Assembly: GCA_950097015.1 (NCBI GenBank)
Contig: CATNEN010000025.1
Coordinates: 248,001-312,000 of the forward strand
Source of the DNA: Macrostomum hystrix
Taxonomy: Eukaryota; Animalia; Platyhelminthes
DNA length: 64,000 bases
Direction of reading: 5' to 3'
The notes beneath the pieces are model-generated. The model searched no databases. It saw only the letters and a list, made by a program, of their open reading frames with translations, and had not been told where the DNA came from. How positions within the stretch are numbered: the first letter of the stretch is position 1; each line of letters starts with the position of its first letter. Position numbers and translations under genes: made by a program. Below, piece by piece: positions 11,987 through 58,447 of this stretch.

Positions 11987-11994
11987 CTATACCA

Positions 11995-35430: not shown

Positions 35431-36290
35431 ATGGCATCAGCTTCAAAGCAAGACCTCAAACCAGCAATGCGTGGTGTCATTCGCTTCTGGATCGACAGCG
35501 GACGCACATATGCGGCTGACATGCACGCAGAGCTTGTTGCGACATATGGAGAGGCGTGCCAAGCGAACCGACTGTCCGACGGTGGGTACGCGAGTTTAAA
35601 GAGGACCGTACCTCCCTTGACGACATAGCACCTGGCCTATCTGGCTCCACGCCGGCGCAGGTGCGCGCCCGTCTGCAAAGCGTTCTCGCTGTTGAAGCTG
35701 CTGTAAAAGCTGCGCCTAAGAGCTCACTTCGCAGGCTTTCTGCCACTGTTGGCCTTTCAAATCCATATGTGCACGAGATTCTCAAGACCGATCTTGGGCT
35801 GTCCCGCCTCTTCTTTCGATGGATTCCCCGCATCCTCACGCCAGAGCAGAAGAGTCGACGTGTCGAGGTTGCGCACGCGCTGCAAGCTGCCTACACTCTC
35901 GAGGGTCAGCATTTCCTTGACAAGATCATAACGTGCGACGAGACGTGGCTGCCCTTTTTGAGTCGGCTGGCAAGCAGAAAGACGCTGAGTGGTGTGTGCG
36001 AGGCTCAAACTCGCCAACGAAGCCTCGGCAGACGTGGACAAAGAAGATCATGATCTCTCTCTTCTTCGATGGCCAAGGTCCCCTGCTGGTCGACTTTCTG
36101 CAGGATGGCAAGACCATCAACTCAGTGCACTACCAGGAACAGCTTGAGCGCCTCAAGGTGGCTGTTATTGCGAATCGACGCGGCACGTGGCGAAGCGGTC
36201 GTGCGCTTCTCCATGACAACGCTCGCCCACATACCGCCATGGCAACCATCGCAAAGCTCAACGAGATCGGGCTCGACGTGCTGGACCACG
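35431..36290 (+). pseudogene. mariner transposase pseudogene, 3' truncated
   Basis: TVRRWVREFK, RWIPRILT, ITCDETW, LLHDNARPHTA; stop at 35626-35628, frameshift near 35950, breaks at LDH before YSPDL. Confidence 0.85.
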
Positions 36291-38946
36291 TGTTGTGAGC
36301 TGCGTCTCATAACGACCTTGCCCCGACCCCTGCGTCTCCAGCCCTTCCACCCCAGCCGCCTGCTCAATCTGGTTCTGCCCGGCTCCGGCTTAGGCCACCC
36401 TCCGTTGGCGTGTTTGTCGTTTGTCGTTCGCCCATTGACTGTCCCCTATGCCGTCCTCGCTAGTCCAATCAGGCCTCTCGCCAAGGAGGCTTCTGATTGG
36501 CTAGCCGGTCTCCTTCTCTCTCTCTCTCTCTCTCGGCTTGCAGCCGACCCCAGCCCAGCCCTGTTTGCTACCACCCCAGCCCTGCGTGGCTTAGCCCTAC
36601 CCCGTCCAGCCCTATGCCCTCACCCCACCCCACGCGGTTATTTATTTGCGCGCGCTGCCCGTGGCCAGCCCCGCGCCTCCAGAGTACTAGGGCGAGAACG
36701 TTGGCGAAGCTAATACAACATTAGAAAGTAGAATCCATAATAAACTACGCAGCCTGAAGCACAATTTATTGCATGAGTTCCACGTTCAACCCCTCCCGGT
36801 AAGAAAAGCATTCACGCGTTATTTATTTCTTTATTATCGAATCTTGTTCCTCTGCCCAACCTCGGCTGCTGCCAAAAACTCACCATCATCCTTCTCCTCC
36901 AGAGTCTTCCTCGAGTCTGCGAAGTGTCGGTACGCTTCCAGACCATCATCTACCTCTCTCTTGGGCTGTCGAGTGGCTACCCGCTAAACAGTTGGAGCTA
37001 AGTGTGCACTCTACCTTAAGCAGTCCCACAGATAAAGATTTGTGGAGTTTAAAACAGCCTTTTCAGGTCCACCAATTATTTAAAGTGTTTGGTAAAGGAT
37101 AGGAAAATACATATGTTAAGTAGAGAGTAAAATGGCCTAGAATAAAAACTACCTAAAGAGATTAAATTGAGAGTGTAGGCCTGCTTACACAGGCAAAAAA
37201 TCCGTCTTTCAAATTTTTTAATCAATTGAATATTGCATTATTTTACTTCTAATAGCTCTTGAGAATGGTGTTTTAAGTGTAATAGATTAAATTACTCGTA
37301 ATAAAAATGTAATTTGAAATTCACATATTTTAGTCATTGTATATGACAATTGTCATTGTCATTAATATGATATTTCAAAGTATAACAACAACAAAAATCT
37401 ATAAGAAAATTCAGGTAGGTACTATATATACATATTTTTCTGCTTCTGCTCCTTTACCTGGACATATAAAAAGATAGCTATTTGTCTGGTTAACTGGACA
37501 AATATCCAAGATGGCTAATTGTCTGAATGTCCAATTAACAAGACAAATAACAACTGCCTAACATTTTATCCATAGTGCAAAAGGATGGGTATACTCCGGA
37601 AGTTTCTGTCGTTCACAAAGATAGCCTGTTGTACATGTCATACACAAAGAAAATGTTTGGGGTGCATGTTGTACACTGTCGTACATTAAATTATGTTTAA
37701 AGTTATGTCGCCCAAATGTGAGTTGAGTTGTCATTGTTGTACACAAAGTAAAGTGCAATTGTTAGTTGTTACAATTTATCAGGAAGCAAAATTTTAAAGT
37801 TTTTAATGTTACATTTTTACTTAATTTTCTATTCCATTAATTTAAGAAAAATATATATAGCCTTAAAAGAAATCTTGCTTTTAATTTCCTTTTTTGCAGA
37901 GTAGGGCTATCTGCAAGTTGTGTTTCACAGCGCATCTTTCAAAAAAATGGCACTCTTTAAGTGCCAGTTATGTAGACAGAATGATTTGAATTATATTGTT
38001 GCGAATAGTTTATTAAGAAAGTATTTATTATTATTTTTTATTATTAGCAAATGCTGGTAACACTCCGCGCATGAAAAAGAAATGAAGATGACTTTAAATC
38101 TAATGGAATTAACATATATTACAAACTAAGTTTAACATAAACATACTGTAAAACTAGAAAGTACTATACATACTGTAACATGTTAATGGCTAGATAAATT
38201 AAATTAATCAGTGTACCATTTTGAGGAAAAGGGACAATAATGTTACAATTTAAAAATGACTTTGTCATACAACAGTACTACGCTTATTTGATCCCTGTTG
38301 TACCATCGTACAACAGAATGAAATAGAAAATTACCTTCTGTCATACAAAAAAATCCTTTTGCTCTATGGTATTTTATATATATTCTGAATATATAGGAAT
38401 TTAGTCAATAAGAACTTGGGTTAAACTGGGCAAATTTAGTTCAGTGCAAGCTTGATAGGATTGCTTAAAACCAGTGTGTTCACAATAATAATAATAGGAA
38501 ATTAATAGTGTCTTGCTGCTTGGACAATGGACATTAAATTGCAACAAAAACCATATAATATAATTCTGAAATAAAGGAAAAAATGAATAGTGTATTATAC
38601 AGTAAAATATAGATACAAATTATTATAAAAGCCAATAGTAAATGCAGAAGTGAAATATATAATAGGAATTGATGTAGACCGAAAGCTAGTATGTTTGAAA
38701 ATGTGCGACTTTTCCTATTTTTGTTTAAATTACGTATATTTGTTTTAACGCGAAAATAGTTGTTTGAATACACTGTAAATATTTGTTTAAAATGATACGA
38801 AAATTAGTATAAATACAGGAGTGAAAGCGAGAGAGAAATTAACCTTGTTCAACGCAGTTTGAATCAAAGTTCATATACAATACTCAGAATCGTGTTCTTT
38901 CATTCTTTATAAAACATACGGAGACAAATACAATACTAAGAAAGAT

Positions 38947-39516
38947 GGCTATGGTGGAGTTCCGTTCGTTATATTATTTTTTAATTTCAAAATGGTGCCA
39001 AAAGCCTGGTAATGCAACGGACGATTTGGCATGACGTGGCATATGTATGTCTATGGTCTAAAATTGACTGTTGGCTCAAGTCAAGACCTTATCGGCTCAA
39101 GTTGCTCAAGTTGCCTCAGCACAAATCAAAAGTACAAATCAACCCAAGCTGCTACTGGAGATGGCGGGTCGACCTTCTGCACCATCGACAATTATTCTCC
39201 CAGGAGAGATTATGGCTGCTGTGGAACTATGCAACATCGACTGGACACTGCGGGACATGCACACCATGACTGTGGACACACTGTCAACCATGCGCTGGCT
39301 AGCAAAGTACCGGCTGCTGGCCAATGAGCGGCGCTGCCACTGTGCTAATGCACCACCTATGCGCCTGCAGCGTCGTCAGGGAGACCGCTACATCGATGAG
39401 TGTCCTCATTTAAATGTTTGTTTAAATGTTGCTGCATTGGTCGTAAAACTTGTTTAACCTGTCCGCAGTCATTTCAAATTGCAAAATAATATAACGAACG
39501 GAACTCCACCATAGCC
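38947..39516 (+). mobile_element. 570-bp internally deleted Merlin (IS1595/ISXO2-like) element
   Basis: 34-bp perfect TIR GGCTATGGTGGAGTTCCGTTCGTTATATTATTTT; 8-bp TSD AGAAAGAT/AGAAAGAC; WLAKYRLLANERRCHC..MRL matches Merlin transposase N-terminus. Confidence 0.8.
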
Positions 39517-41100
39517 AGAAAGACTCAAGAGAGAGAAGTAGGAAGTATTGCTGTATACTTGAGATCATTGGTAACGCTCTTCGGAAAGCCTATAATCAGA
39601 AATACATACATGCGATAAATTAATCGGCCAGAATAACTAAATACGCTACCTTAGACTAACTAAAGATGATATTCAAGGATAACTAAATACGCTACCAAGA
39701 AATTCTTTTAAGCATATAGAATACATTCTCAGAAATTAATTCTAAGAAACATTAACAGTAAAAAATACAACATTGTGAGAGTAAAAGTTAGAATAATAAT
39801 TAGCGCTAGAACAACTTTGGTGGTATTCAGTAGAATATTAAAATATTATAAAATAACCCTAGGACAGAATAATTTAAGCTACTTGCAGTAGCTTAATATA
39901 ACTTGCAGTTTTTACAAATAGTTTTAATGTCAGAGAGGGCCTCCAACATATTACATTTACAACCTGTAAAACGTAACAATGGATTATTTACGACAGCAAT
40001 GAGCAAGAAATTTGTTATTAAAGGAGTTGGCTTCGTTGCTTTAGTTAAAACTTTTAATAATAATACGTTGTAAATCTTGCTAATGTGTCTTGCATAAGGC
40101 GAATGTATTCATTGAATGATAAGTCACGCGGCGCAGTGGTTCAGTGCGCGAATCCCTTTCGAATTTGTAATTTTAACAAAAGCAAATCTACCAAATATAT
40201 ATATTATATTTTCTTACAAATAAAGCATAAAATTTATTTTATTAACGTTACGTTAGATCTTTCTTAAAGAATGTTACAATACTTTCCGAATTTTCAGATT
40301 TTTGCCCAGCTTTTTTCGACTCATTATTCGGTCTTTTCGGAGAGCCATTTGGGCCTCATTGGAACGCAAACAGCAATTTTCGTATAGCGCTTATATTTCA
40401 GTGCGCAGCAGTTCAGTTCTGCTCCATTTAGCTAACTATTTAGATTGATTTATTCGGAAGTCAGATTAAGACAAAAAATGAACATAAAGGCCTTCCTAAA
40501 ATCATTTTCATCTTCTCTCGTTTATAACAACGTAAACAGTGTATTTAAACGATCACGCGTATTTAAATTCACGCGCTAGCTCTGCAGCTATTTTTAGAAC
40601 TGGGAAGACCACGCTTCCTATATGGCTTTGCTCGCAAGCACTCTTTTTCTCTCGTTATTGATATTGCATTAGAGCAGCAGCAGTGTACAGTATACTGAAT
40701 GTATTGTTTCGTTCGAGATCAATTGACTGACTGATTGACACTGATTAAGACAGACTCTGTCTTATGGCATTCATTCATTTGATTTAACTTTGACTGGCGG
40801 CGGCAGCGACGACAAGCAAAAAACACGGAAAGGCAATTCGAATATTTTCTAAGCTAAAGGCTACTCGATTATATTTCGCAGAGGCTAACTAATGCTATCC
40901 AGCTGTACAATTGAATTTTTATCTCACCTCGAAGTGCGCACAGGCGGACGGGGCTGGCTACTGCTGCTTCTGATGCTTCTGCTGCGGCCCGGGGCTGGCT
41001 ACTGCTGCATGCTTCTGCTGCTACTGCTGCTTCTGCTGCGGCCGGTACAGCTGCACTGAGCTGAGGATGAGCATGGAAAAAAACAATTAGAATATAATTT

Positions 41101-41123
41101 CACATGTGCGCGCTTTATACGCT
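41101..41123. other. Half recombination-like site: spacer CACATGTG + arm CGCGCTTTATACGCT
   Basis: Same arm as the 47370-47407 site; inverted-repeat homology stops exactly at this spacer. Confidence 0.6.
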
Positions 41124-43175
41124 GCAGTAACACAGTCTAATGAATTCAATCAGCCCTCCCTCCAAGGCCTGTGCAAGTTTTCTCTGCGTGTTTTCTCTCT
41201 GTCCCGGCCCCCTTTATCTGCCCCACGGTGTTTTTGACTCACTATTTAAATATTTAAATATATTAAATACTATAAATATTGTATATATAAAATCTTAAAT
41301 GTAGCAGGCAGACAGACAGGCGGGCAGGCAGGGCGAATCACTCAAATTTAATGTTCCGACACTGAGGGCAGCCGCCGTCTCTTCCGTGCCACCGGTCTAC
41401 CGTGCAGGACTGCGTCGGCTCGTTGGGTGCTCGCCGCCACCTCACCACTTCCACCAGCCAGGCTGCTGATGAGTCCCTGGGTCGGCGGCCTAACTATGGG
41501 TCGCATCTCTTCGGCACCTGATGGCACCACAAACCGGCGGACAATGTCGCGGCTGCGAATCACCGCGCCCATCTCCGTGGCCATCTGCGCGTTGTGACCA
41601 TAGTTAAACCGGATGACAGCTGCAGATGTGCCGTGCGCTCTGGCAAACACATCTAGCTGCTCCGGCTCCATCATGAGCACTACGGCACAGAGGGTGCGAC
41701 GCCAGTGCGTGGCCACATAGTGCCGACCCAGTACTCGCTGCCCGCCTGCGCTGATCATGCGGCTCATTGCCGACTGGCTGTACACGCCGCCGAACACATC
41801 TATGAAGACCGTCGGCGACTCCGGTTGCTCGATGCCGCGAGCAGCAAGCGACGGCAAGATGTATTCGTCGTGCAGGCGCAGCAAGGCCTCGCAGAATAGA
41901 TCCGGCAGTACCATCCTGGCTGGATCGCCGGAGTGTCCGACCTTGTGCGGCACTTCACGCAGCGGCAGGACGAGGTGCGAGTGCCCAGCCAGATCGGCAG
42001 CGGACAGCGCGCTCTCCCAATCTGCACTTTGCGTGTGTTGGCGGAAAAGCTGTTTTTGGTCGGCCGACGCGTTTCGCAGAACCGAACTGTCGACCAGGTG
42101 TCGCCGTCTTAAGTATATCCACGGCAGAAGTCGCAGTGGCTGCTCGACGCTGCAGTAGAAAAGCATCTCCTGCACTATCCGCCGCAGACATACCATCCGG
42201 CGACTGAAGGCGCCATCATCTGCTTCGCCGTTGTCTTTGGTGTCATCAGCGATGCCATTAGCGACCACACCTGCTGCCTGCATGCCCCATTCGCCGTCGA
42301 CTGGCAGTGAAGACCAGCTGTGTCTTTGGAGCATGATGAAAAAGCGGTCTCGACGGGCGAACACGGCATCAACCTCGTCCACGTTGACGTAGGTGTCCAT
42401 GAAGGCCACCTGCCGCTCATTGTGGCCAAGCTTGTAGACGGCTTGTATAGTATAAATGTGGTTGCGTTTACTTCTAGTAGATAGCAGCACGAAACCAAAT
42501 AGAACTAACTGTCATTAATGCAGCTGCTGTGCAGCTAGCTCACCTGCTGGATGGCGCGGACGTTGCCGAACTCGCCGCGAGCCTGCTGCACCACGCTGCT
42601 AAGGCGGGCGATGAGAGCCTGCTCAGCCGCCAGCGGGTTGTTGGCCTTCTGCGCCAACTGCAGTCTCCAGCAGACTCCACTGCAGACAAGGTCGCCGTCC
42701 TCAATATCAGCAGTAGCAGTAGCAGCAGCATCTGCGCGGGCGGCGTCAGCCGAGGGGGAGTCGATGCTGCAGAACAGCTCGGCCTCGCGCAAGCCAATGG
42801 CGGCCATGATGGCATTGGCGCCTCGCAGGCCCCTTACGCGCAGCCAGCCCTCCATGCAGCGACAGATGCTGACCAACTCCTGGCACTTTCGCGCCGCTGT
42901 CGACTGAGCCAGCTGCATGGCGTCACTGACTGTTTCGGCGCTGAAGCAGTCCTGCACCCTGTCCGGCTGCAGCAGCAGGTCTGCAAGCGAGATGCCCGCT
43001 CGCTGCCAGGTTCGCAGAAGCGTCGCGCTCACCGACTTACTTATGTCGCGCCAACGCTGCTGGTGGCACAAGTTGGCCGCAATCCTGGCCCGCGATGGGT
43101 CCCTCCACCACAGCTCCCGCAGGCGTTCCACCGTCGCGGAGATGCTGGGCCGGTCACCCAACGGCTGCAGCAGCT
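41101..43175. repeat. Left arm of ~2-kb inverted repeat (partner 45623-47392)
   Basis: Reverse-complement near-identity with 45623-47392; identical translated ORFs on opposite strands. Confidence 0.95.
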
Positions 43176-44083
43176 TCTGATCGGCTGTCGACGCTTCCTG
43201 CTGCAGTTCTGCTCCGAAGATGGACAATCGAAGCCGGTCGAATTCGGCATTAGCCAGCCTTCTCTTTGCAGCAGTCCACTTTGCTGCAGCTGCTCGACGC
43301 TGCCTCGGCGGGGTAGCTGCCAGCTTCACTAGCGGCCTCTGTGCAGCTGACAGCACAGCCGATGACGTGCTGGGACGACAAAGTGCTGCCTTGGTGGCCT
43401 GCACCGCCAACTGCAGACAGGCAGCCGAATAGGAAGACTCTGCTGCCACCGTCTGGACCGTCGGCAGCGTCCGCATTCTGATGCTGGTTCCGGGCAGCAG
43501 CTCCTGCAAGCCGACATCGTAGTCTCCATCCTCGTCATCGTCAGCGACTACGGGGGCCTCCTGTGAGGACATCAGCAGCAGCGGCGCAGTCGGGTCAAAT
43601 AGGCGTCGCCGGACGGCTGGACGGCTGGCTGACGACAGCCGAGCACTGGCCGCTGACTGTCGACCGTCAACGGACGGCGCGGCGATGCTGTAGAGCTCGG
43701 CCAACAGAGACCCACCCTCGTATTCAGCTGGTTCTGCCTCTGAAGGCAGCTGCGGAGGCGGTGGTGGCATCTGCTGGACAACTGTGCTGCCTTGCTGTCC
43801 TACGCAGCACCTTGCCGCAGGCTGGGCACGCGTGTACATGCTTAGTTTTTGCTGAGCTGCGCGTGTGGGTGCTGCACGTCAGGCAGAGCCAGACCATCTG
43901 GGCACGCTGCTTGGCTGACGCCGCTGCCCAAGATGCCTCGGACGGCCGCACCTTGACTGGTGCATCCTCGAGTCGGAATTGGCGCACAGCCTCCTCCGCG
44001 TGCCTCCTCAGGAAGTGGCGTTTCGGGTGCGTCTGCGGTCTGCCGTCGCCACAGAAGATGCAGCACGACTCGTTGTCTGTCAT
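41348..44083 (-). CDS. Zinc-finger / tyrosine recombinase fusion gene, one intron (donor 42543), probable frameshift near 43760
   Basis: N-terminal CIFC..H..H, CLTC..H..C, CPAC..HxC fingers; helical middle; catalytic exon with EQPLR, HKVG, VFID, ATHWRR, RAHGTS, FNY in YR R-K-(H)xxR-H-Y order. Confidence 0.7.
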
Positions 44084-44353
44084 AGCTATTGTTATTACAA
44101 ATTGATGCAGTGCCATATAGGTGTATGAACTGAATTCAGTATGCATGCTCAATCAACACATGCTATATACAGTCCGTTGTGCGTGCACAATGCCTAAATA
44201 AATATATGTATATGCCCCTATATCCCATTATGGAATACACTATTTTAAGTGTTGTGCGAGCACATTGTCCCGTACTGTTGTCATCGCTGCTGCATTTATA
44301 TTCGATTGAGTGCTGCGTTGAGCACATAAATAACTTATTTTTCTGTTGTCCCT

Positions 44354-44400
<47 letters not shown>

Positions 44401-44401
44401 C
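44354..44401. repeat. (AAC)16 microsatellite
   Basis: Direct reading. Confidence 0.95.
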
Positions 44402-45183
44402 CCGGCTGTAAAAAATTATAAGCCTCTGAATCATTGATAAATTTTAAAAACATAATTTTTCATTTGCAATGTAGTACAATCAGCGTGTGTGCCAATCCGT
44501 GCCCTGCACTATATACCACAGATTCTATATTATATAGGTAATATAGAATCTGTGCTATATACTACATTTGTTTACGCTTTAGCAAACCCCTCGAAAAGCT
44601 CAGACATTCGATTTTCCAGTGAACAGCACACCCACCCCCTCCAACTCGATCTTCCTCCCTCAAAAGCAGTGCCGAGCCAGCATCAGACCTGCAGATGGAA
44701 AGTGAGACGACTTCGATCGTCTTTAGTCTATGGTCACAGGGGTGAAATTATCGATTGGTTGAAGCAGACACACTGCTTCTCTTTTTCAAGGCAGAGCAGT
44801 GGCCCTTCCACACCCTTTTACCATAGACTATGAATTTAGAGACAGGGCCGCCCCTTCGATTTCGAAGGTTTAAAGAAAGGGTGGCAAGCCAAGTAGCAGT
44901 CTTTTAGTTTTAGCCCGGCCCAACTGCTCGATCGAACTGCAGCTTACAGTCAAATATAATTCAGAGATTCATCCACAATTCGAATCAACAGTCAGCCTTC
45001 TATTTGCTTGGACTATATTAAAACAGGCTACAGATATAATATCGACAGAGAGCCACAGGATCTATTATTATGTCAACAGCGAGCATTACGATCTAATATA
45101 TTTCTACGCAGCTCAGAACTGCATTACACTTACAGAGATTACAAATATATTATTATTATAGAGAACTGCATATTATATATACA

Positions 45184-45300
45184 AAGACTAATTAAAGGGC
45201 CTAATATATATAAAGACTAATTAAAGGGCCTATTATATATACAAATACTAATTGCAGGGCCTATTATATATACTAAGACTAATTAAAGGGCCTATTATAT
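45184..45300. repeat. About four copies of a ~30-bp AT-rich unit (AAGACTAATTAAAGGGCCTATTATATAT)
   Basis: Direct reading. Confidence 0.8.
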
Positions 45301-45622
45301 TAACCCAGCTTGTAATGCATATTTATGAGCAGAGACTTACACGGCCTATTTTAAATACAGAGCCTTTTTCTTATTTGCAGCGCATCTTCACTCTCCAGCA
45401 GCAGCATAAGCAGCACCAGCAGTAGCATCAGAAGCAGCAGTAGCAGCAGAAGCAGCAGTATCCAGCCCCGGGCCGCAGCAGAAGCAGCAGAAGCAGCAGC
45501 CAGCAGAAGCAGCAGCTGTAGCAGCATCAGTAGCAGCTCGACAGCCCCCGTCCGCCTGTGCCCACTTCGAGGTGAGATAAAAATTCAATTGTACAGCTGG
45601 ATAGCGAAGCCCGTGCCACTAG

Positions 45623-47145
45623 AGCTGCTGCAGCCGTTGGGTGACCGGCCCAGCATCTCCGCAACGGTGGAACGCCTGCGGGAGCTGTGGTGGAGGGACC
45701 CATCGCGGGCCAGGATTGCGGCCAACTTGTGCCACCAGCAGCGTTGGCGCGACATAAGTAAGTCGGTGGGCGCGACGCTTCTGCGAACCTGGCAGCGAGC
45801 GGGCATCTCGCTTGCAGACCTGCTGCTGCAGCCGGACAGGGTGCAGGACTGCTTCAGCGCCGAAACAGTCAGTGACGCCATGCAGCTGGCTCAGTCGACA
45901 GCGGCGCGAAAGTGTCAGGAGTTGGTCAGCATCTGTCGCTGCATGGAGGGCTGGCTGCGCGTAAGGGGCCTGCGAGGCGCCAATGCCATCATGGCCGCCA
46001 TTGGCTTGCGCGAGGCCGAGCTGTTCTGCAGCATCGACTCCCCCTCGGCTGACGCCGCCCGCGCAGATGCTGCTGCTACTGCTACTGCTGATATTGAGGA
46101 CGGCGACCTTGTCTGCAGTGGAGTCTGCTGGAGACTGCAGTTGGCGCAGAAGGCCAACAACCCGCTGGCGGCTGAGCAGGCTCTCATCGCCCGCCTTAGC
46201 AGCGTGGTGCAGCAGGCTCGCGGCGAGTTCGGCAACGTCCGCGCCATCCAGCAGGTGAGCTAGCTGCACAGCAGCTGCATTAATGACAGTTAGTTCTATT
46301 TGGTTTCGTGCTGCTATCTACTAGAAGTAAACGCAACCACATTTATACTATGCAAGCCGTCTACAAGCTTGGCCACAATGAGCGGCAGGTGGCCTTCATG
46401 GACACCTACGTCAACGTGGACGAGGTTGATGCCGTGTTCGCCCGTTTTCCGCCAACACACGCAAAGTGCAGATTGGGAGAGCGCGCTGTCCGCTGCCGAT
46501 CTGGCTGGGCACTCGCACCTCGTCCTGCCGCTGCGTGAAGTGCCGCACAAGGTCGGACACTCCGGCGATCCAGCCAGGATGGTACTGCCGGATCTATTCT
46601 GCGAGGCCTTGCTGCGCCTGCACGACGAATACATCTTGCCGTCGCTTGCTGCTCGCGGCATCGAGCAACCGGAGTCGCCGACGGTCTTCATAGATGTGTT
46701 CGGCGGCGTGTACAGCCAGTCGGCAATGAGCCGCATGATCAGCGCAGGCGGGCAGCGAGTACTGGGTCGGCACTATGTGGCCACGCACTGGCGTCGCACC
46801 CTCTGTGCCGTAGTGCTCATGATGGAGCCGGAGCAGCTAGATGTGTTTGCCAGAGCGCACGGCACATCTGCAGCTGTCATTAGGTTCAACTATGGTCACA
46901 ACGCGCAGATGGCCACGGAGATGGGCGCGGTGATTCGCAGCCGCGACATTATCCGCCGGTTTGTGGTGCCATCAGGTGCCGAAGAGATGCGACCCATAGT
47001 TAGGCCGCCGACCCAGGGCCTCATCAGCAGCCTGGCTGGTGGAAGTGGTGAGGTGGCGGCGAGCACCCAACGAGCCGACGCAGTCCTGCACGGTAGACCG
47101 GTGGCACGGAAGAGACGGCGGCTGCCCTCAGTGTCGGAACATTAA
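45623..47145 (+). pseudogene. Partial inverted copy of the YR gene lacking the zinc fingers and first catalytic Arg
   Basis: Starts mid-gene; 305-bp deletion is frameshifting and removes EQPLR. Confidence 0.85.
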
Positions 47146-47392
47146 ATTTGAGTGATTCGCCCTGCCTGCCCGCCTGTCTGTCTGCCTGCTACATTTAAGA
47201 TTTTATATATACAATATTTATAGTATTTAATATATTTAAATATTTAAATAGTGAGTCAAAAACACCGTGGGGCAGATAAAGGGGGCCGGGACAGAGAGAA
47301 AACACGCAGAGAAAACTTGCACAGGCCTTGGAGGGAGGGCTGATTGAATTCATTAGACTGTGTTACTGCAGCGTATAAAGCGCGCACATATG
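45623..47392. repeat. Right arm of the inverted repeat, with a 305-bp deletion at 46445
   Basis: Equals reverse complement of 41101-43175 minus 42048-42352; a few SNPs. Confidence 0.95.
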
Positions 47393-47407
47393 CGCGCTTT
47401 ATACGCT
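47370..47407. other. Palindromic recombination-like site, 15-bp arms, 8-bp spacer CACATATG
   Basis: AGCGTATAAAGCGCG-CACATATG-CGCGCTTTATACGCT. Confidence 0.7.
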
Positions 47408-47609
47408 AATGTTTTTATAATTGATTATATGCTATAGTTAAGGATATTTATTGTATTTGATTGATTACTCTCGTTGATAATAGTATACTTTATTGTTTTT
47501 GTTGATAGAATTATTTAATTAGCCATAGATTTATCTGACATTTATTAAACAAATGCTGCTAACTGCTCTACTTATAGTAGTCAAGCAAGCAATTTAATTT
47601 TAGATTTAG

Positions 47610-47725
47610 GTACAGTTCATAGTGCGCGCACAATACTTAAAAAATATAAGGATTGTTGTTCTAAAATTAGAGCAGACATGCCTTATATATATTTTTAGGG
47701 AATGTGCGCGCACTACAGACTGTAC
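47610..47725. repeat. 116-bp hairpin module (GTACAGTTCATAGTGCGCGCACA ... TGTGCGCGCACTACAGACTGTAC)
   Basis: 23-bp inverted arms with 3 mismatches; near copy at 52903-53038; TA|CAGT ends compatible with a Tc1-type MITE. Confidence 0.8.
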
Positions 47726-48571
47726 ACGTTGAATTTCTTAGAATTTAGCGCGAATTTGAAATTTTAGTTTCTTATAAAATTTATAAATAACTGAGTAGCA
47801 CTATATGCAGCTGTTAATTGCCGTTATAAGCTCGTATTATATATTATATGTATAGCTTTTTGCGTCCATCCAAATTGTATTTTAATGCACACATTACTAC
47901 ATGTATTTTAATTGCTTGTTGTTGCAGATGCCACTTGTTGATTCTCATCTTAAATTAGTTATTTGCCGCTTTTTCATATCCATACGTACCGTCTACATGT
48001 AGTTCTTGATCGAATGCTTATTCTTGATTTATGACTATATTTATTCACATATATGCATGCAGTCAGCTCTTCAATTCATATATACAAGTATACTTACTCT
48101 CGTTGCTACAGCTGAATTATTATAAATTATAATAACACAATTAGCGCCCAAATAAGCACATAACAACTGCGTGTGTGTGAAATTATTTTTAGACTACTAT
48201 TAATAAAGGAATGCGATAAACTCAAGACATAGACAAAGGTTAGGCACATAGAAACTAAAGGAAGGACTGTGCTGCCGTGGCTCATCTTGAGCACACAAGT
48301 CAAAGAGAGCTAGCTCGCGCTGATTGATTTCTCTATGCCAATCGATTAAGACAGACTCGATCGTTCCCAAGCTACTTTGATTTTCAATCCCAACTCTATT
48401 AATCAACCAAATCAACTCCTTCGTGATCTACTGTTTCGTTTCGACTGCCCCCTACACTGTTCCGATTACTCCGCTCCAGCTGCGACCCCAACGACGACGA
48501 CTGCATTTAAAGTGATTTTTATCTGCGCTCCACAAGGTAGGCAATCATTGTTAATTATTCTAGCTGCCCAT

Positions 48572-51500
48572 CTATCTAACTTGTTGGAGAGCAGCAACAG
48601 CAACAACAACAACTATTTGTTGGCGGTGAGGGATTAAAAAGTTTAATGGAGCCGGTACAGAAAAAGAAAAAGCCACGGAGTGGCGCGCGGTGTCCAGGCC
48701 GTCAAACATGAAGTCATTACCGCCGAAGCGCTTAATGACCGGGCAGAATACGCGCTCCTGGCCCAAGTGGCGCTCGACGGCGGTGGTCTTGCCGACTCCC
48801 GACGGCCCATACAGATAGACAACGCCCGACTGGTGGCGAAGGGCTGTGCAGACAGCCTCTCGGAGCGGGCACGAGTTCCGGTTGTCGGCAGCCTCGGTGG
48901 AGCATGCGGAACAGCCGGCGAGCTGCTCCCTGCGAATCCGGCGCTGGCGCTGCACATCTCTGAAAACCCCCAGCAACGTGGCGCGCATCTGCTGGTGGGC
49001 CAACAAGACGCCGTCAGTCTGGTCGGGCAGGTTGGCAGTCAGCGGGTAGGACAGCGCCCACCGAGTCGCTTGCACCAGCATGCTGCACTGCGTGGCGCCG
49101 ATCCCGATCAGCAGCGGGTAGCCGTCGTGCTGCGTCAGGCTCCGCAGCACACTGTCTGGCGAACGGACGCCGCACAGCGTCAGGGTGGTCCGGTCGGGCA
49201 CCACAAAGCAGCGTCCCTCGTCTCGGCTAGGCAGCAGGCTGAACAGCAGCTCGTATAGATGCCAGCCGGCCGCGTTGGTCTCCAGGCGCACGAAGCCGGA
49301 CAGAGTGCGGTGTGGCCGATACTCGCTATGCTGCTGCTGTTGGTGTTGCTCCATCTCGTCGACGGAGAGCGGGTCAGCGACTAGCCGCCGGTCGCAGAAT
49401 TCATCCATGCCGACGCAGAGGCCCGGGCTGGACGCCAGGACGAGCTCGACACAGTGTGCCTCCAGAGCCTCGCCCAGATATACCTTGGCACGACCCGTTT
49501 ATGTAGGCAGCATGGAAACAGTGGATGCCAGCTGGTTATACGAGGGTCACTCAGAAAGTCTTTAGCCTGAACAAGAAAACAGCAACATATGAAATAAAAA
49601 ACCATTACAACTGCTCGAAGTACTCTCCCCCCGCATTGATACAGGCTTGTATCCTGTGGAACCAGCTGTCGAAGCACTGCCGCCAATCCTCATCCCGGAG
49701 CTCCCCGATGACGTCTTTGAACTCATTCACAGCTTCTTCCGGCGAATAAAAAATCTGGCCCTTTAATATCTCCTTGCACTTCAGGAATAAAAAAAAGTCG
49801 CACGGTGCCAGGTCTGGACTGTATACGCAGGGTGAGTCATCAGCTGGACACCACAGTCGGCCAGAAACTCGAGAGTTTGAGCTGCCGTGTGCGCACTGGC
49901 ATTGTCGTGGTGCAGAAGCACCCCACGCATTCCACACCTTGGGCGCCTCTGGCTCACAGCAGAAAAAACTTTGGGCAGGCAAACCGTTGTGTACCAGTCA
50001 GCGGTGACTGTCAGGCGATCTTCCAGTGAAACGGAAGCCACATGTCCAGTGCGCATGAAGAAGCAGGCCACCATCTGCTTGCCGGCACTCCGGTTGCGTC
50101 GAAACTTGGTTGGGCTGTCCTCGTCTCTGAAGGTCCACATGGATGACTGGCGCTTGTTTTCGGGGTCGTATTGATAAATCCAGGTCTCATCTCCCGTGAG
50201 GATGTCCCAGATACGCCGGCTGGTCCCAGATTCGAATTTCTGCAGCATAAATCGGCACCAAGCCACCCGGGTGTCCCTCTGCTCGTCCGACAGCTGATGG
50301 GGGATCCACCGGGAAGCCAGCTTCCGCACTCCGAGGTGTTCGTGCAGAATGGTGTGCACACTCCCCGATCCAATGCCCATCTCCTGCTGGATCTGCTGGT
50401 AGGTCACTCGCCGGTCAGCGTCAATCATGCTGGACACAGCGCAGATATTTTCTGGGGTCACTGCGTCGCAGGGTCTCCCGGATCGATGCTCATCTTCGAG
50501 GCTTTCTCGACCTCGGCGAAACTCAGCGAACCAGTTTTTGACGGTTGCGTATGAAGGACACAGATGAGCGAAAACGTCTTGTAAAGTTTGAAATGAATCG
50601 GCCGGCGACTTGCCTTGCTTGAAATGCAAGTACATCATAGCTCTGAAGTCACGATTTTCCAGCTTCATTGTGCAATTGAACGGCGCAAGGGGTGAACTGA
50701 CTTTGGCTCACTGCAGTGGACTCAAAAGTAACTGCTTCTGTTTGAAAATGTAGCTATAAGACTTTAAAAAGGTGGTCTTTACCATAGACAAATTTCATGC
50801 TTCTGCGTCTCGTGGATCATACTCAGGCTAAAGACTTTCTGAGTGACCCTCGTATGATTCAAAGCTTAAGAACAAAGCAAGTGACTCACCGACGAAGCGC
50901 ACGTTGTCGATGTGGAAGACGTGCAAATAGCGGCGCCCGGTCAGAATCCCGCTGTCCTCTGGCAGTCGCTCCGCAGGAGCAGCACCGGTCATTGCGAGCG
51001 GCCGGCTGCCGGAGCGCGTCACCGTGAACTGCTGCTGTGCTGCTGCCGCATTAAGCAGCGGGTTTTGGCCCAGCCGTCGCACGCCTCGGCCGCCTCGTTG
51101 TCCTCTGGCGCCGCCGACCGCGCTCCTGCTCGCCTCGCTGTCCCCCTGCTGTTGCTGCAGGAAGTGCATATACTGTGCCGCAGACGCCGGCGGACTGTAG
51201 CTGAATGCCATCAGCGAGGGAGGACGCTCGAGCTGCACCTGCTCTTGTTGCTGCAGCGGCTGCGGTGTCATTATGCGCCACCACTCCTGGCCGACAGGGA
51301 CGGACTGGCTGGCCTCATTCATAGCGGCCACCACCGCTGCTGCGAATGCCGCTGTGCCAGGCGACACCACGTAGGCCGTCGTCTCATCTTCCGGACGCTG
51401 AGACGGTGTGGTCTTGGCGACTGCAAGTCGTCGGCCATCGGGCTGCGAGTCTGGCACCATGGCGCCCACAATGGAGCAGTCGGCAGCAGCAGCAACAGCA

Positions 51501-52552
51501 GGAGCAGTCGTTTCGAGCCGCTGAAAACGGAACCTCCGCCTCCCTGGCTGCCGTTGTTGGTCGGCCGCGACTTGAGGCGGTTTCGGCACCGTGCTGGCGA
51601 CCTCCTCCATTTCCGCATCAGCGCCCGACGGTGGGGGATCTGCAGCGACTGACAGCGCAACGGTGGACGCCTCGTAGTCCAGCAGTGCCTGCAGAGCATC
51701 GCGGTCGTCGCTATTAATCGCCTCCTGCTCGTTAGGCTCCGATGGCTCCGCCTTTGGGCCGCTACTGCGAGTTGCCGCTGTCGGCCTGCTTTTATCGTGG
51801 CGCTCGTCGTCGACGTCCTCAATCTCGATGACGACGGGGCTGCGAGGCTGTAGAGCTGCCCTGGACCTGTCGGGCGCGTCAGACGCCGCACCGTCGCTGT
51901 CGTCACTGTTGCCAGCAGCCTGTCGCCCGACGTGCCTGATCACTGCCGGCGACGACCATCTGCTGGTGGCCTTCTTGGCACTCCGGTGCTGATCTCCGAG
52001 CCAAGCCAGCAGGCTCCCTTTTGGCGCAGTCGAGGCTGAGGCTGCCATCGCGTGGAAGATTGGTGCGTAGACGGTCGTGTTATTTGCCGATGTACTGGCA
52101 GGTGGTGGCTGCTGATTGCCTGCTGCCGCTGGCTGGGATACGACGCGGATGGACACAATCGACGCGTTCAGCAGGTCCACACTGCCTGATGCTGTGGACA
52201 TCTGGTCATTGGCAGGCTGCTGCTCTTCGGTGTTCAGGCGCATGACACCGCTCAGGGGCAGCAGGCTGAAGTCGTCAGCGTCACTGCTGATGTTAGCCAC
52301 CGCTGCTGTCTGCACTGGACGGCACCGCTTTGGGCCTGGCGTAGATTCTGCAGCTGCTGCTGCTGCCGCTGCATTGACAATGCGACGTTGAGAGGGAGCG
52401 CTCTTTCTTTTTCGCTGTGATGGTGGCTGGTGAGTTGATGACGCTACCGGCCCGGCGGAGTTGCTATCTTGGGCAGCTCTCTCAAACTCGTCCAGCGCGG
52501 CCGCAATTCGTTCATCGTCGCTGTCGCAGCCGGTTGAAAAATTGAACGACAT
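48572..52552 (-). pseudogene. Large spliced gene: low-complexity N-terminus + possible Rep-like domain + SF3-like P-loop ATPase, disrupted
   Basis: Exon 1 52552-50890 (GTGAGT donor), exon 2 from 49531; frameshift near 49485; VVYLYGPSGVGKTT followed by FMFDGLD as in Rep SF3 helicases; Walker B not found (truncated near 48660). Confidence 0.55.
49541..50852 (-). mobile_element. mariner (DD34D) transposon, 1312 bp, inserted in a 44-nt intron
   Basis: 30-bp perfect TIR CGAGGGTCACTCAGAAAGTCTTTAGCCTGA, TA TSD; transposase 50668-49605 with TGDETW, HHDNAS, YSPDLAPCDF and one 2-bp frameshift near 49825. Confidence 0.95.
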
Positions 52553-52770
52553 TCTGTGCTTCCGCGGGTTAATTATAGGCGCGTTCAAATTTGGATGTAT
52601 GAAAATGAGCAGGCTGCAGAAAGCCAACGCAGTCCCAGGTTCTCAACTTCAACTGGGTGCAACATGGTGGGATTCCCTATTAATAGAGTCCCAAGTACAT
52701 CCCAAGGAGAAGGAGCAGGCTATTTAGGATGAGCAGCAGATAGTACCACTGTTACTAATTCTTCTAGTAG

Positions 52771-52804
52771 ATCAATATGCGCGCACATGTGCGCGCATAT
52801 TGAT
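52771..52804. other. Perfect 34-bp palindrome with 13-8-13 layout
   Basis: ATCAATATGCGCG-CACATGTG-CGCGCATATTGAT. Confidence 0.75.
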
Positions 52805-52902
52805 TTTATAGCTTTAAACTGATAGATTCAGATTCTATTAATAGGTGCTTAATTAGGTTAATTCGGATCCCGGTTAAGTTGATAGTGTACTTTTAGCGAG
52901 AA

Positions 52903-53038
52903 GTACAGTTCATAGTGCGCGCACATTACTTAAAAATATATAAGGACTTGCCTGCTATTCTTAGGTAGATAAGCAGCTCGAATCGAATCGTCTTATATAT
53001 ATATTTCTTAGGGATTGTGCGCGCACCACGAACTGTAC
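52903..53038. repeat. Second hairpin module
   Basis: Left arm identical to 47610-47632; right arm TGTGCGCGCACCACGAACTGTAC. Confidence 0.8.
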
Positions 53039-53201
53039 TCTGCTGTCTATTTTTAGGTTATCCAAAATAAACTTCCCGGTATCGAGTTGGATCTGCCAAC
53101 TTAGTTGATACTAAACCATTCTTTTATTGGTGCAGAGTTGGTTTGGGTTCACAAACAGGGATAAGTTATTTAAACTGTCTAGCTAAGTCTTTTTGCTGCT
53201 G

Positions 53202-53620
53202 CTACTGCTCCATTCGATATTGGCGACTCCGGAGCAACTCTCGCAGTCTTGCCCTTTGCTGCACGCCGCGCCAGTAGTCCAGCCCGTGTAGAATGTGCTG
53301 CAGCTCCAAACAGGTGTCCTCCACCAGGCCTAGCAGCTGGCCAAGTCGAAAGCCTCGTTCTCTGTTAGGCAGGTCACCTCCAGGATGGTCTCGTAGCCCG
53401 CAGCTGTCTGGTGTTGTAGCAGCCAGTCCAGGAGGCTCTTCAGCAGGGTGTGTAGCTGGGTGGCATTCAGCTCAGCATTCGGGCAGTGGCGCTGCAGGCA
53501 GGTCAGCTGCTCCAGTCGTCCTCGGTGCGCCAGGAACGGGGCCAGGCAGGCGATGTCGCATCTGGCCAGGAGTGCCACGATGGCCGGCGAGCCGAACAGC
53601 GCCACAGGATGAGCATTCAT
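53202..53620 (-). pseudogene. ~138-aa GC-rich gene with one frameshift near 53340; possibly death-fold-like
   Basis: MNAHPV..LAPFL..LLDWLLQHQTAAGYETILEV..AFDL / GQLLGLVEDTCLELQ..LDYWRGVQQRARLRELLRS; codon usage like neighbouring YR and helicase genes. Confidence 0.45.
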
Positions 53621-54002
53621 CGTGGTTCTACGCACCCAACAATGTCGTGAGTGCAGCAGCAACGCGTCTAACACTAGCTAATACCGCTATAGTCACTATA
53701 TATCCCACAGTATATTGGAAAAATTTCGATCGATCATCACAGTGCGAAATGGGTCCCTAATTCAGGTGCGGGCAGTGGCATGGGGCTGCAGTCATCATGT
53801 AACGTAAGATAATACCCTGTATGAAACTCATTTCATAGAATGTTCGAACTGCATTCCGCTGCTGTCACAACTGCGCCATTTGAAACAAAATTATCATGAC
53901 TGGTATATATTTAAGTATTCAATCAGCCAACCGATCTCGCACCTAACACTGCAACAATTGCTATCAGTAGTAATCAATTTAGAATTATAGCAAAGCGGGT
54001 CG

Positions 54003-54505
54003 CGGGCTCTTTTGCTGCATAAGAAAGCATTAAGGGTTGAGTCGGGCTCTTTTGCTGCATAAGAAAGCATTAAGGGTTGAGTCGGGCTCTTTTGCTGCAT
54101 AAGAAAGCATTAAGGGTTGAGTCGGGCTCTTTTGCTGCATAAGAAAACATTAAGGGTTGAGTCGGGCTCTTTTGCTGCATAAGAAAGCATTAAGGGTTGA
54201 GTCGGGCTCTTTTGCTGCATAAGAAAACATTAAGGGTTGAGTCGGGCTCTTTTGCTGCATAAGAAAACATTAAGGGTTGAGTCGGGCTCTTTTGCTGCAT
54301 AAGAAAGCATTAAGGGTTGAGTCGGGCTCTTTTGCTGCATAAGAAAGCATTAAGGGTTGAGTCGGGCTCTTTTGCTGCATAAGAAAGCATTAAGGGTTGA
54401 GTCGGGCTCTTTTGCTGCATAAGAAAGCATTAAGGGTTGAGTCGGGCTCTTTTGCTGCATAAGAAAACATTAAGGGTTGAGTCGGGCTCTTTTGCTGCAT
54501 AAGAA
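54003..54505. repeat. 40-bp tandem repeat, ~12.6 copies
   Basis: Unit TAAGGGTTGAGTCGGGCTCTTTTGCTGCATAAGAAAGCAT with one G/A variant site. Confidence 0.97.
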
Positions 54506-56362
54506 TCGCTACATAAAAAACCATAGACTACACAGTCGGGCTGAATTGCCGCTATTGCAATTTCAATAGAGAGAGTGAGTGCGAGCGAGGAAAATATGTT
54601 TTACAGTAACTGTCAAATAGAGGTTAATTTGATAGAGTTTTGGTAAACCCGTAAATATACTCAATTAAGATAAATCACACATGTTCTGGACTGTTTTGTG
54701 CCGAAAGTAGCAAAAATAACGCAATAAATTCATAAATTTACAAAATTATGAATAATCTGTAGCTTAACGTTTGTCAATCAATTCACTAGTTGCCTATAGA
54801 TTTTGTTGTTCAAAGATTTGACTGATTTGTCTTGTGCTTGCTGGGATACTGTGGAATTGTGGAAGTCCCTGTGGAAGTCCCTGTGGAATTGCCGACTAGT
54901 CGGCTGCGCTGATCTGCAATATGGTTATTTTGAAATTATGCTCCTTATATGGTCTTTGATGAAAAGATTAGAAATTGAAAATATCGTCGTTTCGGCGCCC
55001 GCAGCCGTCCTGCAATTCTTATTTTATAGCTATACGTACCGTGTACATAAAGCTTCGAGTCTTCATTAACGAAAAACCAAGCTGGCACACTTCCAGAGAG
55101 TAAAAACCTATCAGCTATCAGCTCATTTCAAAGTACTCAATGACTTTCGAAGTATGGAAATCGTAAACATCTCAGGCAAAATAGGGTGCATGGTGCAGTG
55201 AATGCTTAAAAGGCATACGCATTTTTGTTGATCCTCATCGCCGATTGTAAAGTAAAAATGTTGCGTTATGAGTATATTAGTATAGTACGAGTACTATCTA
55301 AAGAATGAACACAGTGAATCACCAGAGAGAAGAATATGAATGCACAAGAGTTCTGCAATATAAAAGGTGCAGTAGTCTGGAAAGTCTGTCACATTTATCC
55401 TCTTGTAATTGGGATCGTATTGAAGCAAGATATCGCCAGTGTTATGCGCGTTACTTGTTTCTAACTTACTAATTTGGTATCGATCTTTACTTTTTCTCGT
55501 TACCACGGGCTGGTAATAAATATGACGGCAACAAGTCGTTACTAACAGTGTGCATTTCCCGTTACCTGTTTTCGTTACTAGTTTCCGAAAAAATAATTTG
55601 ACTTTAGCAGCACTGTAAATAAATTATTTTGCTGCATTAAACAACTTTTTAAACTGTCCATTTTTTTCTTTTAGACTGAAAGGCGGGGTGGAGTACTCAC
55701 TAAACAAGAAGCATCGCTGCAGGGATATCGATGACCAGCTCATGGATCAATACAATGAAAACGATGGTGACTTGCGCGTGACTGTAACCTGTTTGTATTT
55801 ATTTACCTGACTGTAACGAATAGAGACCGCAGAGCAGAGGCAAGCTGATCACTTAGCGAGCAGCAACTAGCGCTGACCATATGCGTATGACCGCGAACGA
55901 GTTGCGGTCTACAAAAGCTGGTTACCACAAGAATAAGATGAGTTTTCTTCTAGTCAAATGGTCGCACAAGCATATCGAGAGCGAACTCTCGACCTCCCGT
56001 CGCTCATTCAATCTTCAAAATTGCGAGCTTTCCGCTTGTGCCGAGGCTCAAGTGTGACTTTGACAAGGAGCTTCAGTCTGGATTGATATCCGTTAGCCTG
56101 CGACCAGCTTCTCTGGCAAAGTGGACTTCAGTCGCTTGGCTGAGCAAAAGCAACGCAGGCGTTCGCATCGGCAGCGGTGCTTAATTCGGTTCCCCGATGT
56201 GCATCGATTCCAATGCTGAGTTCTCTGGACAATCCATGCACCGAACTTGGGCATTGCCGGCATCGATTAGCTGTAACAACTGTTTGGCGTGTCACAAAAC
56301 ATCTTGCGTAACGGCTGGTGGTACGCGCGTCCAATGCCCTAGCAGCGACTGTTCGACCGTGA

Positions 56363-57592
56363 TCAGTAGTAGGGGTTAGCAGTTAGCAGCCCCCACATTG
56401 TTTTCCTTGTTGAAAACAACCCTTTGTTCACTGTAGAGATAAGAGAAATGGCGGGCCTATCTCTTTGCGCTGCGTACGGCTGCAGTGGAGTGGAGAGGCC
56501 GATGGAGGGTGGGTGAGGTGTGAGGTGGGAGTTGGAGATAAGGGCCCCAGTCCTGGCAGACTGGCTGCTTTTCAGGTAGTGCAAGTACTCTCGCACAAAT
56601 GAGTTGTTTTCGGGTGTGAATGCACCGTGGCACATGGTTTCCCCGCCTTTCTTTAGAGCTAGCTGGCTGAGGTTGAAGCTCTGGAACTCGAAGGGGCAGG
56701 TGTGATGATTCCCGTTGAAGGCTCGGTGGCTCACGAAAGCCAGCATGATGAACTTAGGGAGTTTTCCGTGGGTAAAGCCTTCAATGTTCTTCGACTGGAT
56801 TCTCTGGGGCAGAATAAAGTTCTGCATTTCGGCTCGCTCCATAGGATAGAGCGCATTCTGGTTGGTCAGTCCCTGATCATGGGCTAGGCTGATGTGAGAA
56901 GCCACCTTGACTCGGCGGAGATGCAGGATGCAGTGGGAGATTTCCATGCGGTAGGCTGTGTTGTTTGTGACCGGGGTTCTGATGGCAAATGCAGCGTCGC
57001 TGGGCACCAACTTGATGTGCAGGTGCAGGTTGTTCAGCAGGAACATGGGGCACTGGAAGATGTCGCTGAACAACGGTCCGACATACTCCACCCAGCGGGA
57101 CAGCCTGTGGCTCTCCATGTGCGCCTCTGCAGCGGAGTCAGGTTGCAGGAATCCAGCGGGGTAGAACTTCAGCTGCTGGGCGTCTGAGGAGCTCATGAGA
57201 GCTTTGAAATAGGCATGGTAGGGATAGAGCTGGTCTCCCCCGGACACAACTCGCTGGTTAATGCTCACAATGACATCAGAGAAGAGCGTAGACAGGACGA
57301 AGTTTTCAGGGTGCACATCACTGTCTCGGCGCTCTGTCAGCTCTCCTTCAGCGTTCAGAACATTCTCCCTCAGCAAGCCCCCATCCAGTCGGACTAGGCG
57401 GCAGCGAATGTACAGGAAAGAATTCAATAGTTCGGTGTATTCGTCAGCTGATGGGTGGCAATCGAATTCGATGGGTGCATTTGCAGCAATTGAGTTCACG
57501 GGGTGAATATCGACATAGGAGGATTTGTCAATGGCAGTCTGCAGCGCAGGAGCCTTGAACAAATCGAGCCTTGGGTTGAATCCATAAGCCAT
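56363..57592 (-). pseudogene. Polinton major capsid protein (PY/hexon-like), C-terminally truncated and reading into the terminus
   Basis: LDLF..LQTAI..YVDIHP..PIEF..EY..L..VHPENFVLSTLFSDV..YPYHAY..GPLFSDIF..GKLPKFIMLAFVSHRAFNG..PFEFQ pattern. Confidence 0.88.
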
Positions 57593-57656
57593 GTCTACGA
57601 CAAAGAGTCCAGCACGCGCTTCACCGTTTTCCTGCTGACTTTTCGCTTCCTCTTGC

Positions 57657-57983
57657 TTACCGTTTTGCCCTTTGCTTTGCTCTCTCCTTTCTTAGGTTTC
57701 TTTCTACCTGCATTGTTCCGTTTCCTTGATTTTTTCCCCTTCTTGCCATTTTGGCGAGAGGTGTCTTCTTTATTATCTTTTTCCTAGAAACTTTAGCATT
57801 CAACTGTCTTCTTTTGCTAACGCTTTTGCCAGCCGAGGCCAACTGAGATGCATGTGCTGGTGAAGTTGCTGGAGGAGGTTGATATGTCATGATCCCTGGA
57901 AAACTTCCGCACCCATAGGGCGCAGATTTATCGCTTCCATTTCGAGTTCCAGAGTACTGCCGGATCATCTGTTGATAGTTCAT
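57657..57983 (-). CDS. Small basic protein upstream of MCP (Polinton core/PM-like)
   Basis: MNYQQMIRQYSG..GCGSFPG..YQ then K/R-rich tail; syntenic position. Confidence 0.45.
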   Translation of the reverse strand: MNYQQMIRQYSGTRNGSDKSAPYGCGSFPGIMTYQPPPATSPAHASQLASAGKSVSKRRQLNAKVSRKKIIKKTPLAKMARRGKNQGNGTMQVERNLRKERAKQRAKR

Positions 57984-58041
57984 CGAATAAGTTTCTCCCG
58001 GATCTGAATCGTGAGCAAAACAGGACTGCAGCTCTGAGCAG

Positions 58042-58375
58042 TCAGAGGGGACCAAATGTATCCCGCAGTTGAATTCGAATGCTGTGTAGAAAATTTGCTT
58101 TCTGGATTGGGAAGAAAAGTGTTTTCTTAAACACTTTGCTGAAGTAGCAGCCCCATTCAGCATTAGAACTGATGTTCACAGTTCGCAGCAGGGAGTCCCA
58201 GTTGCAGCTTGTTGACTCAACAAGGCTGCAGCGCACATTGACCAGGTTGGTGGGCGGACAGCCGATGCAACAGCTTGACACTTGGCACCCAGGTGGGATT
58301 TTGATTGACTGGTTTCCAAATCCCAACCACTGCGAGCCCCGAGGCGGCACGAAATTGGTACCAGACCGGATCGCG
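58042..58375 (-). pseudogene. Polinton minor capsid protein (penton) C-terminal part
   Basis: WLGF..VNVRCSLVE..SLLRTVNI..FFPIQK..IRIQLRDTFGP motif; flanked by stops. Confidence 0.65.
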
Positions 58376-58447
58376 GCTTAATTCACTGTCCTGCAATGGT
58401 ATGCGCCCAGATGGCGACGACGAAGCCACACTGATTTCCTTGTCGGA

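Follow-up and report, generated by a model that had tools for sequence, protein, structure and literature searches.

A candidate modular mobile element with a tyrosine recombinase, a superfamily 3 helicase and internal palindromes in the flatworm Macrostomum hystrix

Few DNA elements of animals move by a tyrosine recombinase, and for most of them little is known of the DNA sites involved. Among described systems, Cryptons are eukaryotic DNA elements that carry such an enzyme and for which movement through a circle has been proposed (PMC3212892; for CryptonV, PMC8869645). Cryptons have short terminal direct repeats (PMC3212892, PMC13465315, PMC8869645, PMC5753468), some CryptonV families target microsatellites (PMC8869645), and the word 'helicase' is absent from the main Crypton description (PMC3212892). 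Here we describe a locus in a 64,000-nucleotide stretch of Macrostomum hystrix DNA (contig CATNEN010000025.1, positions 248,001 to 312,000; the window) that is best explained as a damaged, intron-bearing mobile element of three modules, each comprising one gene and one paired-site module, M, with perfect palindromes (one carrying a mismatch in this copy) between the genes. Compared with Cryptons, this element adds a helicase sharing cis-sites, a third gene, internal palindromes and the M modules.

The combination of a tyrosine recombinase, a superfamily 3 (SF3) helicase and inverted repeats has been described for Polinton-like viruses (PMC11296320, PMC4642659, 10.64898/2026.10.13.758929), whose end module is the closest known counterpart of the present gene pair, placing the recombinase beside an SF3 helicase with a homologue-less N-terminal part, and whose inverted repeats are proposed as recombination substrate and origin (PMC11296320; PMC4642659). 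Unlike these viruses, the element has introns, a helicase that aligns with CRESS-type SF3 domains, cis-sites once per gene and no terminal inverted repeats, and no gene for a major or minor capsid protein or a packaging ATPase was found among the open reading frames (ORFs) of 40-55 kb. On the features tested it belongs to neither Cryptons nor Polinton-like viruses, although its enzymes are like theirs. Zinc-finger recombinases are known from crustacean nimaviruses (PMC10871703), and in the phaeovirus integrase/telRL system integration requires minimal homology and a 6-bp palindromic core is cut to hairpins (PMC13236599). Phaeovirus proteins are both structural and feature neighbours of the window recombinase, but phaeoviruses are giant viruses with two separate enzymes, whereas here one enzyme serves an element of about 14 kb. 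Bracovirus proviral segments lie in tandem in the chromosome and are released as circles; they are bounded by direct repeats and their enzymes are encoded elsewhere, whereas the present modules themselves encode the enzymes and meet at palindromes. An SF3 helicase domain is found in CRESS viruses and densoviruses as in the element. The element also has a His motif, ~240 residues ahead of Walker A, that weakly resembles that of densoviruses, but no significant HUH match and no capsid; to our knowledge CRESS viruses and densoviruses encode no tyrosine recombinase.

The element is apparently undescribed so far: literature searches returned no paper describing it, and Repbase, outside their scope, may hold an entry. 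It pairs a divergent recombinase family with clear candidate sites, making enzyme and substrate directly testable in a laboratory flatworm genus. It is possible, at somewhat below even odds, that the locus represents a segmented self-replicating animal DNA element in which each gene sits on its own segment with its own origin, the segments forming a chain in the chromosome from which a single Xer/Cre-type recombinase frees them at perfect palindromes, as circles or hairpin-capped molecules, a multipartite episome or virus class without a described counterpart. If the modules are freed separately, the life cycle would be a new one, intermediate between those of transposons, plasmids and multipartite viruses, and the enzyme might be a eukaryote-adapted recombinase or hairpin-forming enzyme of a new kind.

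Genes, palindromes and paired-site modules

The features of the element are given below in window coordinates. The window was compared with contigs of 4 of 8 listed public runs, one of which is referred to as X1.

40894..41100, unit A, CAG-rich, with an inverted second copy at 45410-45605; presumed duplication at the left breakpoint of an inversion
41101..41123, half-site adjoining unit A, with the whole 6-bp core ACATGT and a single arm of palindrome 1; a likely recombinase cut point
41348..44083, minus strand, full-length copy of the tyrosine recombinase gene, encoding zinc fingers at the N-terminus, then a low-complexity linker, a helical domain and the catalytic domain; frame break near 43800, short intron starting near 42534 with uncertain 3' end
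42133 (Arg), 41944 (Lys), 41701 (Arg) and 41602 (Tyr), minus strand, recombinase catalytic codons
44167..44275, minus strand, module M0: two inverted half-sites with an AT-rich interior, homologous to M1 and M2, 83 bp upstream of the recombinase ATG
44510..44561, inverted repeat of 52 bp without the shared motif, 234 bp from M0 (similar to the palindrome-to-M distances of 202 and 98 bp); skipped in one deep X1 contig
45606..45622, filler of 17 nt at the second rearrangement junction, with no match >9 nt elsewhere in the window
45623..47369, plus strand, second copy of the recombinase 3' part at 99-100% identity, from which 305 nt are deleted at 46445
47370..47407, palindrome 1, 38 bp: 16-bp arms and a 6-bp core in which this copy has a single mismatch
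47610..47725, plus strand, module M1, 116 nt, 202 bp from palindrome 1
48668..52552, minus strand, SF3 helicase gene: long N-terminus of low complexity, a middle part without domain assignment, Cys cluster and Walker A; ending before Walker B, with a mariner insertion and a frame break
49540..50853, minus strand, mariner that entered the helicase gene later, in what appears to be an intron; empty site in run X1
52771..52804, palindrome 2, 34 bp, perfect: 14-bp arms around ACATGT, outer arms unlike those of palindrome 1
52903..53038, plus strand, module M2, 136 nt, 98 bp from palindrome 2
53330..53620, minus strand, small gene belonging to no known family, its frame broken near 53340 in the window copy

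The element is real and coherent, more regular than an earlier sequence-only reading of the window described and with fewer sites than that reading claimed. Three GC-rich minus-strand genes with a common bias had been noted in AT-rich DNA, and they are found as such: GC content at third codon positions is 0.67-0.82 in these genes versus 0.56-0.67 in four other mobile-element ORFs of the window, codon bias is shared, and the AT-rich spacers around them are 23-43% GC. All three genes are broken in this copy, which was rightly called partly decayed, with frame breaks, the mariner inside the helicase gene and the helicase ending before Walker B. The modular layout holds too and is strengthened by a third hairpin module, M0, giving one M per gene (3/3) alongside palindromes at both gene-gene boundaries (2/2). 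Turning 40894-45605 would restore the order M0, recombinase, palindrome 1, M1, helicase (reverse), palindrome 2, M2, small gene (reverse). The evidence from palindromes and M modules comes from this one locus.

Loop-free palindromes of at least 15 pairs occur in the 64 kb only at 47370-47407 and 52771-52804, and none appeared in any of 100 block shuffles. Both have the central 18 bp in common, with an alternating purine-pyrimidine centre, and differ in their outer arms. Their 6-bp core ACATGT is self-complementary, a feature of protelomerase-type sites, and the palindromes also fit the format of tyrosine-recombinase sites, in which inverted 11-13-bp arms flank a 6-8-bp spacer (PMC3212892). Three related palindromes had been reported, at 41101, 47385 and 52784; the latter two are full palindromes, and that at 41101 is a half-site belonging to an inverted duplicate and not an independent site.

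The two hairpin modules already recognised, M1 and M2, fold strongly (z -10 and -7), and M0 was detected by self-comparison of the window. Scored with a profile built from M1 and M2 only, the arms of M0 reach 34.4 and 23.0, compared with a maximum of 19.1 in 200 shuffles. All 11 half-sites, from palindromes and M arms together, align on one motif with TGT-GCGCGC-like boxes, and no comparably scoring half-site motif was found elsewhere in the window. The polarity of M is constant whichever way its gene points, the recombinase being directed away from M and the other two genes towards it. Because this orientation is fixed despite the differing gene directions, M lying upstream of one gene and downstream of two, we rejected roles as promoter, terminator or integron-like attC site. 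A reading of M1 and M2 as microRNA precursors was not supported, Rfam returning only sub-threshold microRNA hairpins. The M pattern matched 0 viral contigs, and the sole palindrome match, in the phage-like contig L001, was judged from the ORFs of that contig to be due to chance. In the folded M1 and M2, mismatches occur at the same positions beside the shared box with differing bases (A-A versus T-T), a pattern that we take, by analogy, to recall folded single-strand recombination sites. An (AAC)16 microsatellite lies at 44354-44401, 80 bp from M0.

An inverted duplicate of ~2 kb, a feature that the sequence-only reading did not contain, accounts for the half-site. Positions 41101-43175 match 45623-47392 in inverted orientation with 99-100% identity, the second copy lacking 305 nt. 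This second 3' copy of the recombinase, on the plus strand, and the helicase thus face one another, with the palindrome at 47380 between them. A single inversion that duplicated sequence at each breakpoint, unit A on the left and the recombinase 3' part on the right, best accounts for the layout seen today, and one of these breakpoints coincides with the predicted recombinase cut in palindrome 1. The junction at 41100/41101 keeps exactly one arm and the whole core, with one base assignable to either side, and this single junction fits what a 6-bp staggered cut leaves.

The recombinase and the helicase

In order to characterise the recombinase we built a structural model from a 9-sequence alignment (predicted local distance difference test score, pLDDT, 66.5; a single-sequence fold reached pLDDT 34.5 and was unusable). 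As modelled, the protein is a Xer/Cre-type tyrosine recombinase, bearing out its earlier assignment. Its best match in structure comparison is XerA (Z 11.2, root-mean-square deviation 5.1, 179 residues aligned), followed by matches that include XerH (Z 10.5), Tn1549 Int (10.0), an integron integrase and Cre (8.9); the top seven rows are all recombinases, with Z 8.9-11.2. Viral Foldseek neighbours are integrases, including phaeovirus FirrV-1-B4. The catalytic residues, placed by alignment motif with two fragments ending at Lys excluded, are conserved: Arg-I in 4 of the 5 rows spanning it, Lys in 4/4, Arg-II in 6/6 and Tyr in 6/6. A search of 1.84 billion protein representatives yielded 8 relatives with 28-38% identity, two in clusters with 7 Macrostomum lignano gene models and six environmental proteins; one relative, P0013 (1084 residues), has the same zinc-finger, linker and catalytic layout. 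No match to the recombinase was obtained in word-index protein searches, Pfam (including ResT-TelK), NCBIfam or PDB sequences, nor to DUF3504 or GCR1_C; PHROGs returned nothing for the window protein and only single weak matches for its relatives (E 0.028 or worse). The 21 listed variants of the gene fall 10 in third, 8 in first and 3 in second codon positions, a sample too small and too selected to demonstrate purifying selection.

For the helicase, the assignment to SF3 is supported through a homologue from M. lignano (P0001), the only one among scored candidates, to which the window protein is 71% identical over 143 residues that end just before Walker B. P0001 aligns with the SF3 domain of CRESS Reps from Walker A to the Arg finger (probability 79.5, E 1.5e-5; 26 of 36 CRESS-type Reps were retained in the comparison set as full-length), and Walker A, Walker B, B', C and the Arg finger follow in order, Walker A alone being kept in the window copy. 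Contigs of X1 diverge from the window at 48666 and 48675 and continue with other sequence; therefore, other copies extend further at this point. A search with tblastn gave no match in phages or plasmids, and an Atlas search gave weak AAA leads only. One lead is a short His motif just past the mariner, which resembles that of 10 distinct densovirus-type proteins. It precedes Walker A by 239 residues, compared with 266-291 in the densovirus-type proteins. With a profile of the densovirus motif, a test chosen after the likeness had been noticed, the candidate exon ranked 8th of 1203 ORFs at E 1.3, with the first His absent. A reading of two short motifs as an AEP primase was dropped, the motifs being only about 8 residues apart. 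As for the small gene, contigs of all 4 compared runs differ from the window near its frame break at 53340.

Circles, a single piece or hairpins

The reading we favour, with a probability of roughly 0.38, is that of an integrated chain of gene-sized segments freed as circles at the palindromes and copied from the M modules. The Xer/Cre-type recombinase would bind the shared half-site motif and probably cuts each palindrome at its 6-bp core, presumably leaving a stagger of 6 bp; exchange between palindromes would then free gene-sized circles. M, with its inverted boxes around an AT-rich interior and its occurrence once per gene, may be a replication origin from which the SF3 helicase would copy the freed circles; we take this arrangement of boxes to resemble the origins of SF3 initiators. 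Because there is one M per gene, each module is suggested to need replication or recognition on its own. A segmented life cycle is plausible, though unproven.

Several observations weigh against such a cycle. The helicase module is the only one of three with palindromes on both sides in this copy, and the window has no further palindrome of the kind outside the outer genes, either upstream of the recombinase and M0 or past the small gene; of the lox-like sites once thought to bound each cassette there remain two full sites and one duplicated half-site. The self-complementary core provides no direction and suits hairpin formation equally, and each palindrome has outer arms of its own, in perfect symmetry, whereas exchange between palindromes would make hybrids. 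Among the 15 joints listed, of 66 in the public contigs, there was no palindrome-to-palindrome joint, hybrid or other excision product. Palindromes are fragile and break at their centre without a recombinase, and one junction proves little. M0 folds weakly (z -1.0 and -1.8); because M1 and M2 fold strongly and M0 poorly, the conserved trait of M may be the paired binding sites rather than the hairpin itself. As to the enzymes, none of the Foldseek matches of the recombinase model reaches E 0.001, though their direction agrees, and both His positions (His-II and His/Trp-III) are replaced in 6/6 rows, with Thr throughout at the second. The helicase had been called Rep/SF3-like, of which the SF3 part stands; an HUH nicking domain was not found against 19 CRESS domains (z -0.8, and an alignment by eye failed its control), and no primase domain was shown in the protein.

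Alternatively, and somewhat less probably, the locus may be a single-piece transposon, or what remains of a Polinton-like virus without its capsid, that moves as a unit of ~11-14 kb by action of the recombinase at its true ends. Palindromes and M would then be sites inside the element, for binding, origin function or inversion, left over from the duplication of modules. The outer modules are indeed not closed by any palindrome, and recombinase, SF3 helicase and inverted repeats form one end module in Polinton-like viruses (PMC11296320). Contigs of X1 are several hundred deep over most of about 40279-54570 and only 45 deep at 54571-55563, a depth that gives no copy number, and TTACA, of the size of a Crypton-type direct repeat, flanks both depth-defined edges (40274-40278 and 54601-54605). 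However, this match may be due to chance and the left edge is doubtful, a deep contig passing 40279 by 40 letters; one M per gene with fixed polarity would also be left unexplained. Run X1 holds several variants at one place together with the empty mariner site, and an outdoor metagenome contains pieces of the element at about 89-97% identity. These data fit a multi-copy family, but the depth would also fit a single deep locus; no related locus was found in the viral, metagenome or genome contigs searched.

Less probable still is a telomere-resolvase-like recombinase that cuts the core at a 6-bp stagger and seals hairpins, producing linear hairpin-capped segments with M as internal origin. Self-complementary cores fit hairpin-forming telomere resolvases as well as lox-type exchange, and the perfectly symmetric private arms and the alternating purine-pyrimidine centre also speak for this enzyme type. 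Cuts spaced 6 bp within palindromes are made by protelomerases (PMC3558466), a site of this kind is where an integrated algal virus becomes linear (PMC13236599), and in an Atlas feature search the ResT/TelK cluster provided 5 of 30 matches (score 0.94). The recombinase model, however, is far closer to Xer, Int and Cre (Z 9-11) than to the protelomerases TelK (5.8) and TelA (4.7), and the palindrome lies at the outer edge of the inverted duplication, whereas fold-back of a hairpin would put it at the centre. Finally, a nest of unrelated repeats or an assembly artefact mimicking one element is very improbable: the window is full of nested transposons, the two inverted copies agree at 99.5%, against a difference of about 5% in the deepest X1 contig, and inverted duplications with deletions can be amplification or assembly chimeras, but one motif is common to all three modules and confined to them, codon bias is shared by the genes, and contigs of four runs cover parts of the element, a deep X1 contig containing a version of the second junction (the first is unverified).

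Neighbouring sequence

Two tandem repeats accompany the element:

45171..45300, tandem repeat of 31 bp, 4.3 copies
54003..54505, tandem array of 40 bp, 12.6 copies, close to the probable right edge

To the right, 56365-59570 is a 3.2-kb element whose inverted ends start with AGTAGT and whose target duplication is of 6 bp (GTGATC); it holds ORFs of 442 and 140 amino acids, which we take to be Maverick/Polinton capsid-like and PC4-like, respectively; the former had no Pfam or NCBIfam match and the latter no Pfam match. It is likely a deleted Maverick and was excluded as part of the element described here, having its own ends and none of the half-site motif. Further on, a PIG-S-like host exon (62818-62946; Pfam E 1.6e-5) precedes a 25-bp tandem array of 19 copies at 63104-63579.

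To the left, ORFs split by a frame break near 14700 occupy 11976-16110 and are presumably those of a non-long-terminal-repeat retrotransposon (endonuclease, reverse transcriptase and C-terminal zinc fingers). We further take 18613-19938 to be a Tc1-like element with 90-bp inverted ends, 20403-22154 a piggyBac-like ORF and 35520-36053 a mariner-like fragment. A small element with 46-bp inverted ends lies at 38946-39517, and two related sets of broken transposase-like ORFs, at 27041-29748 and 6277-6855, represent another DNA transposon family.

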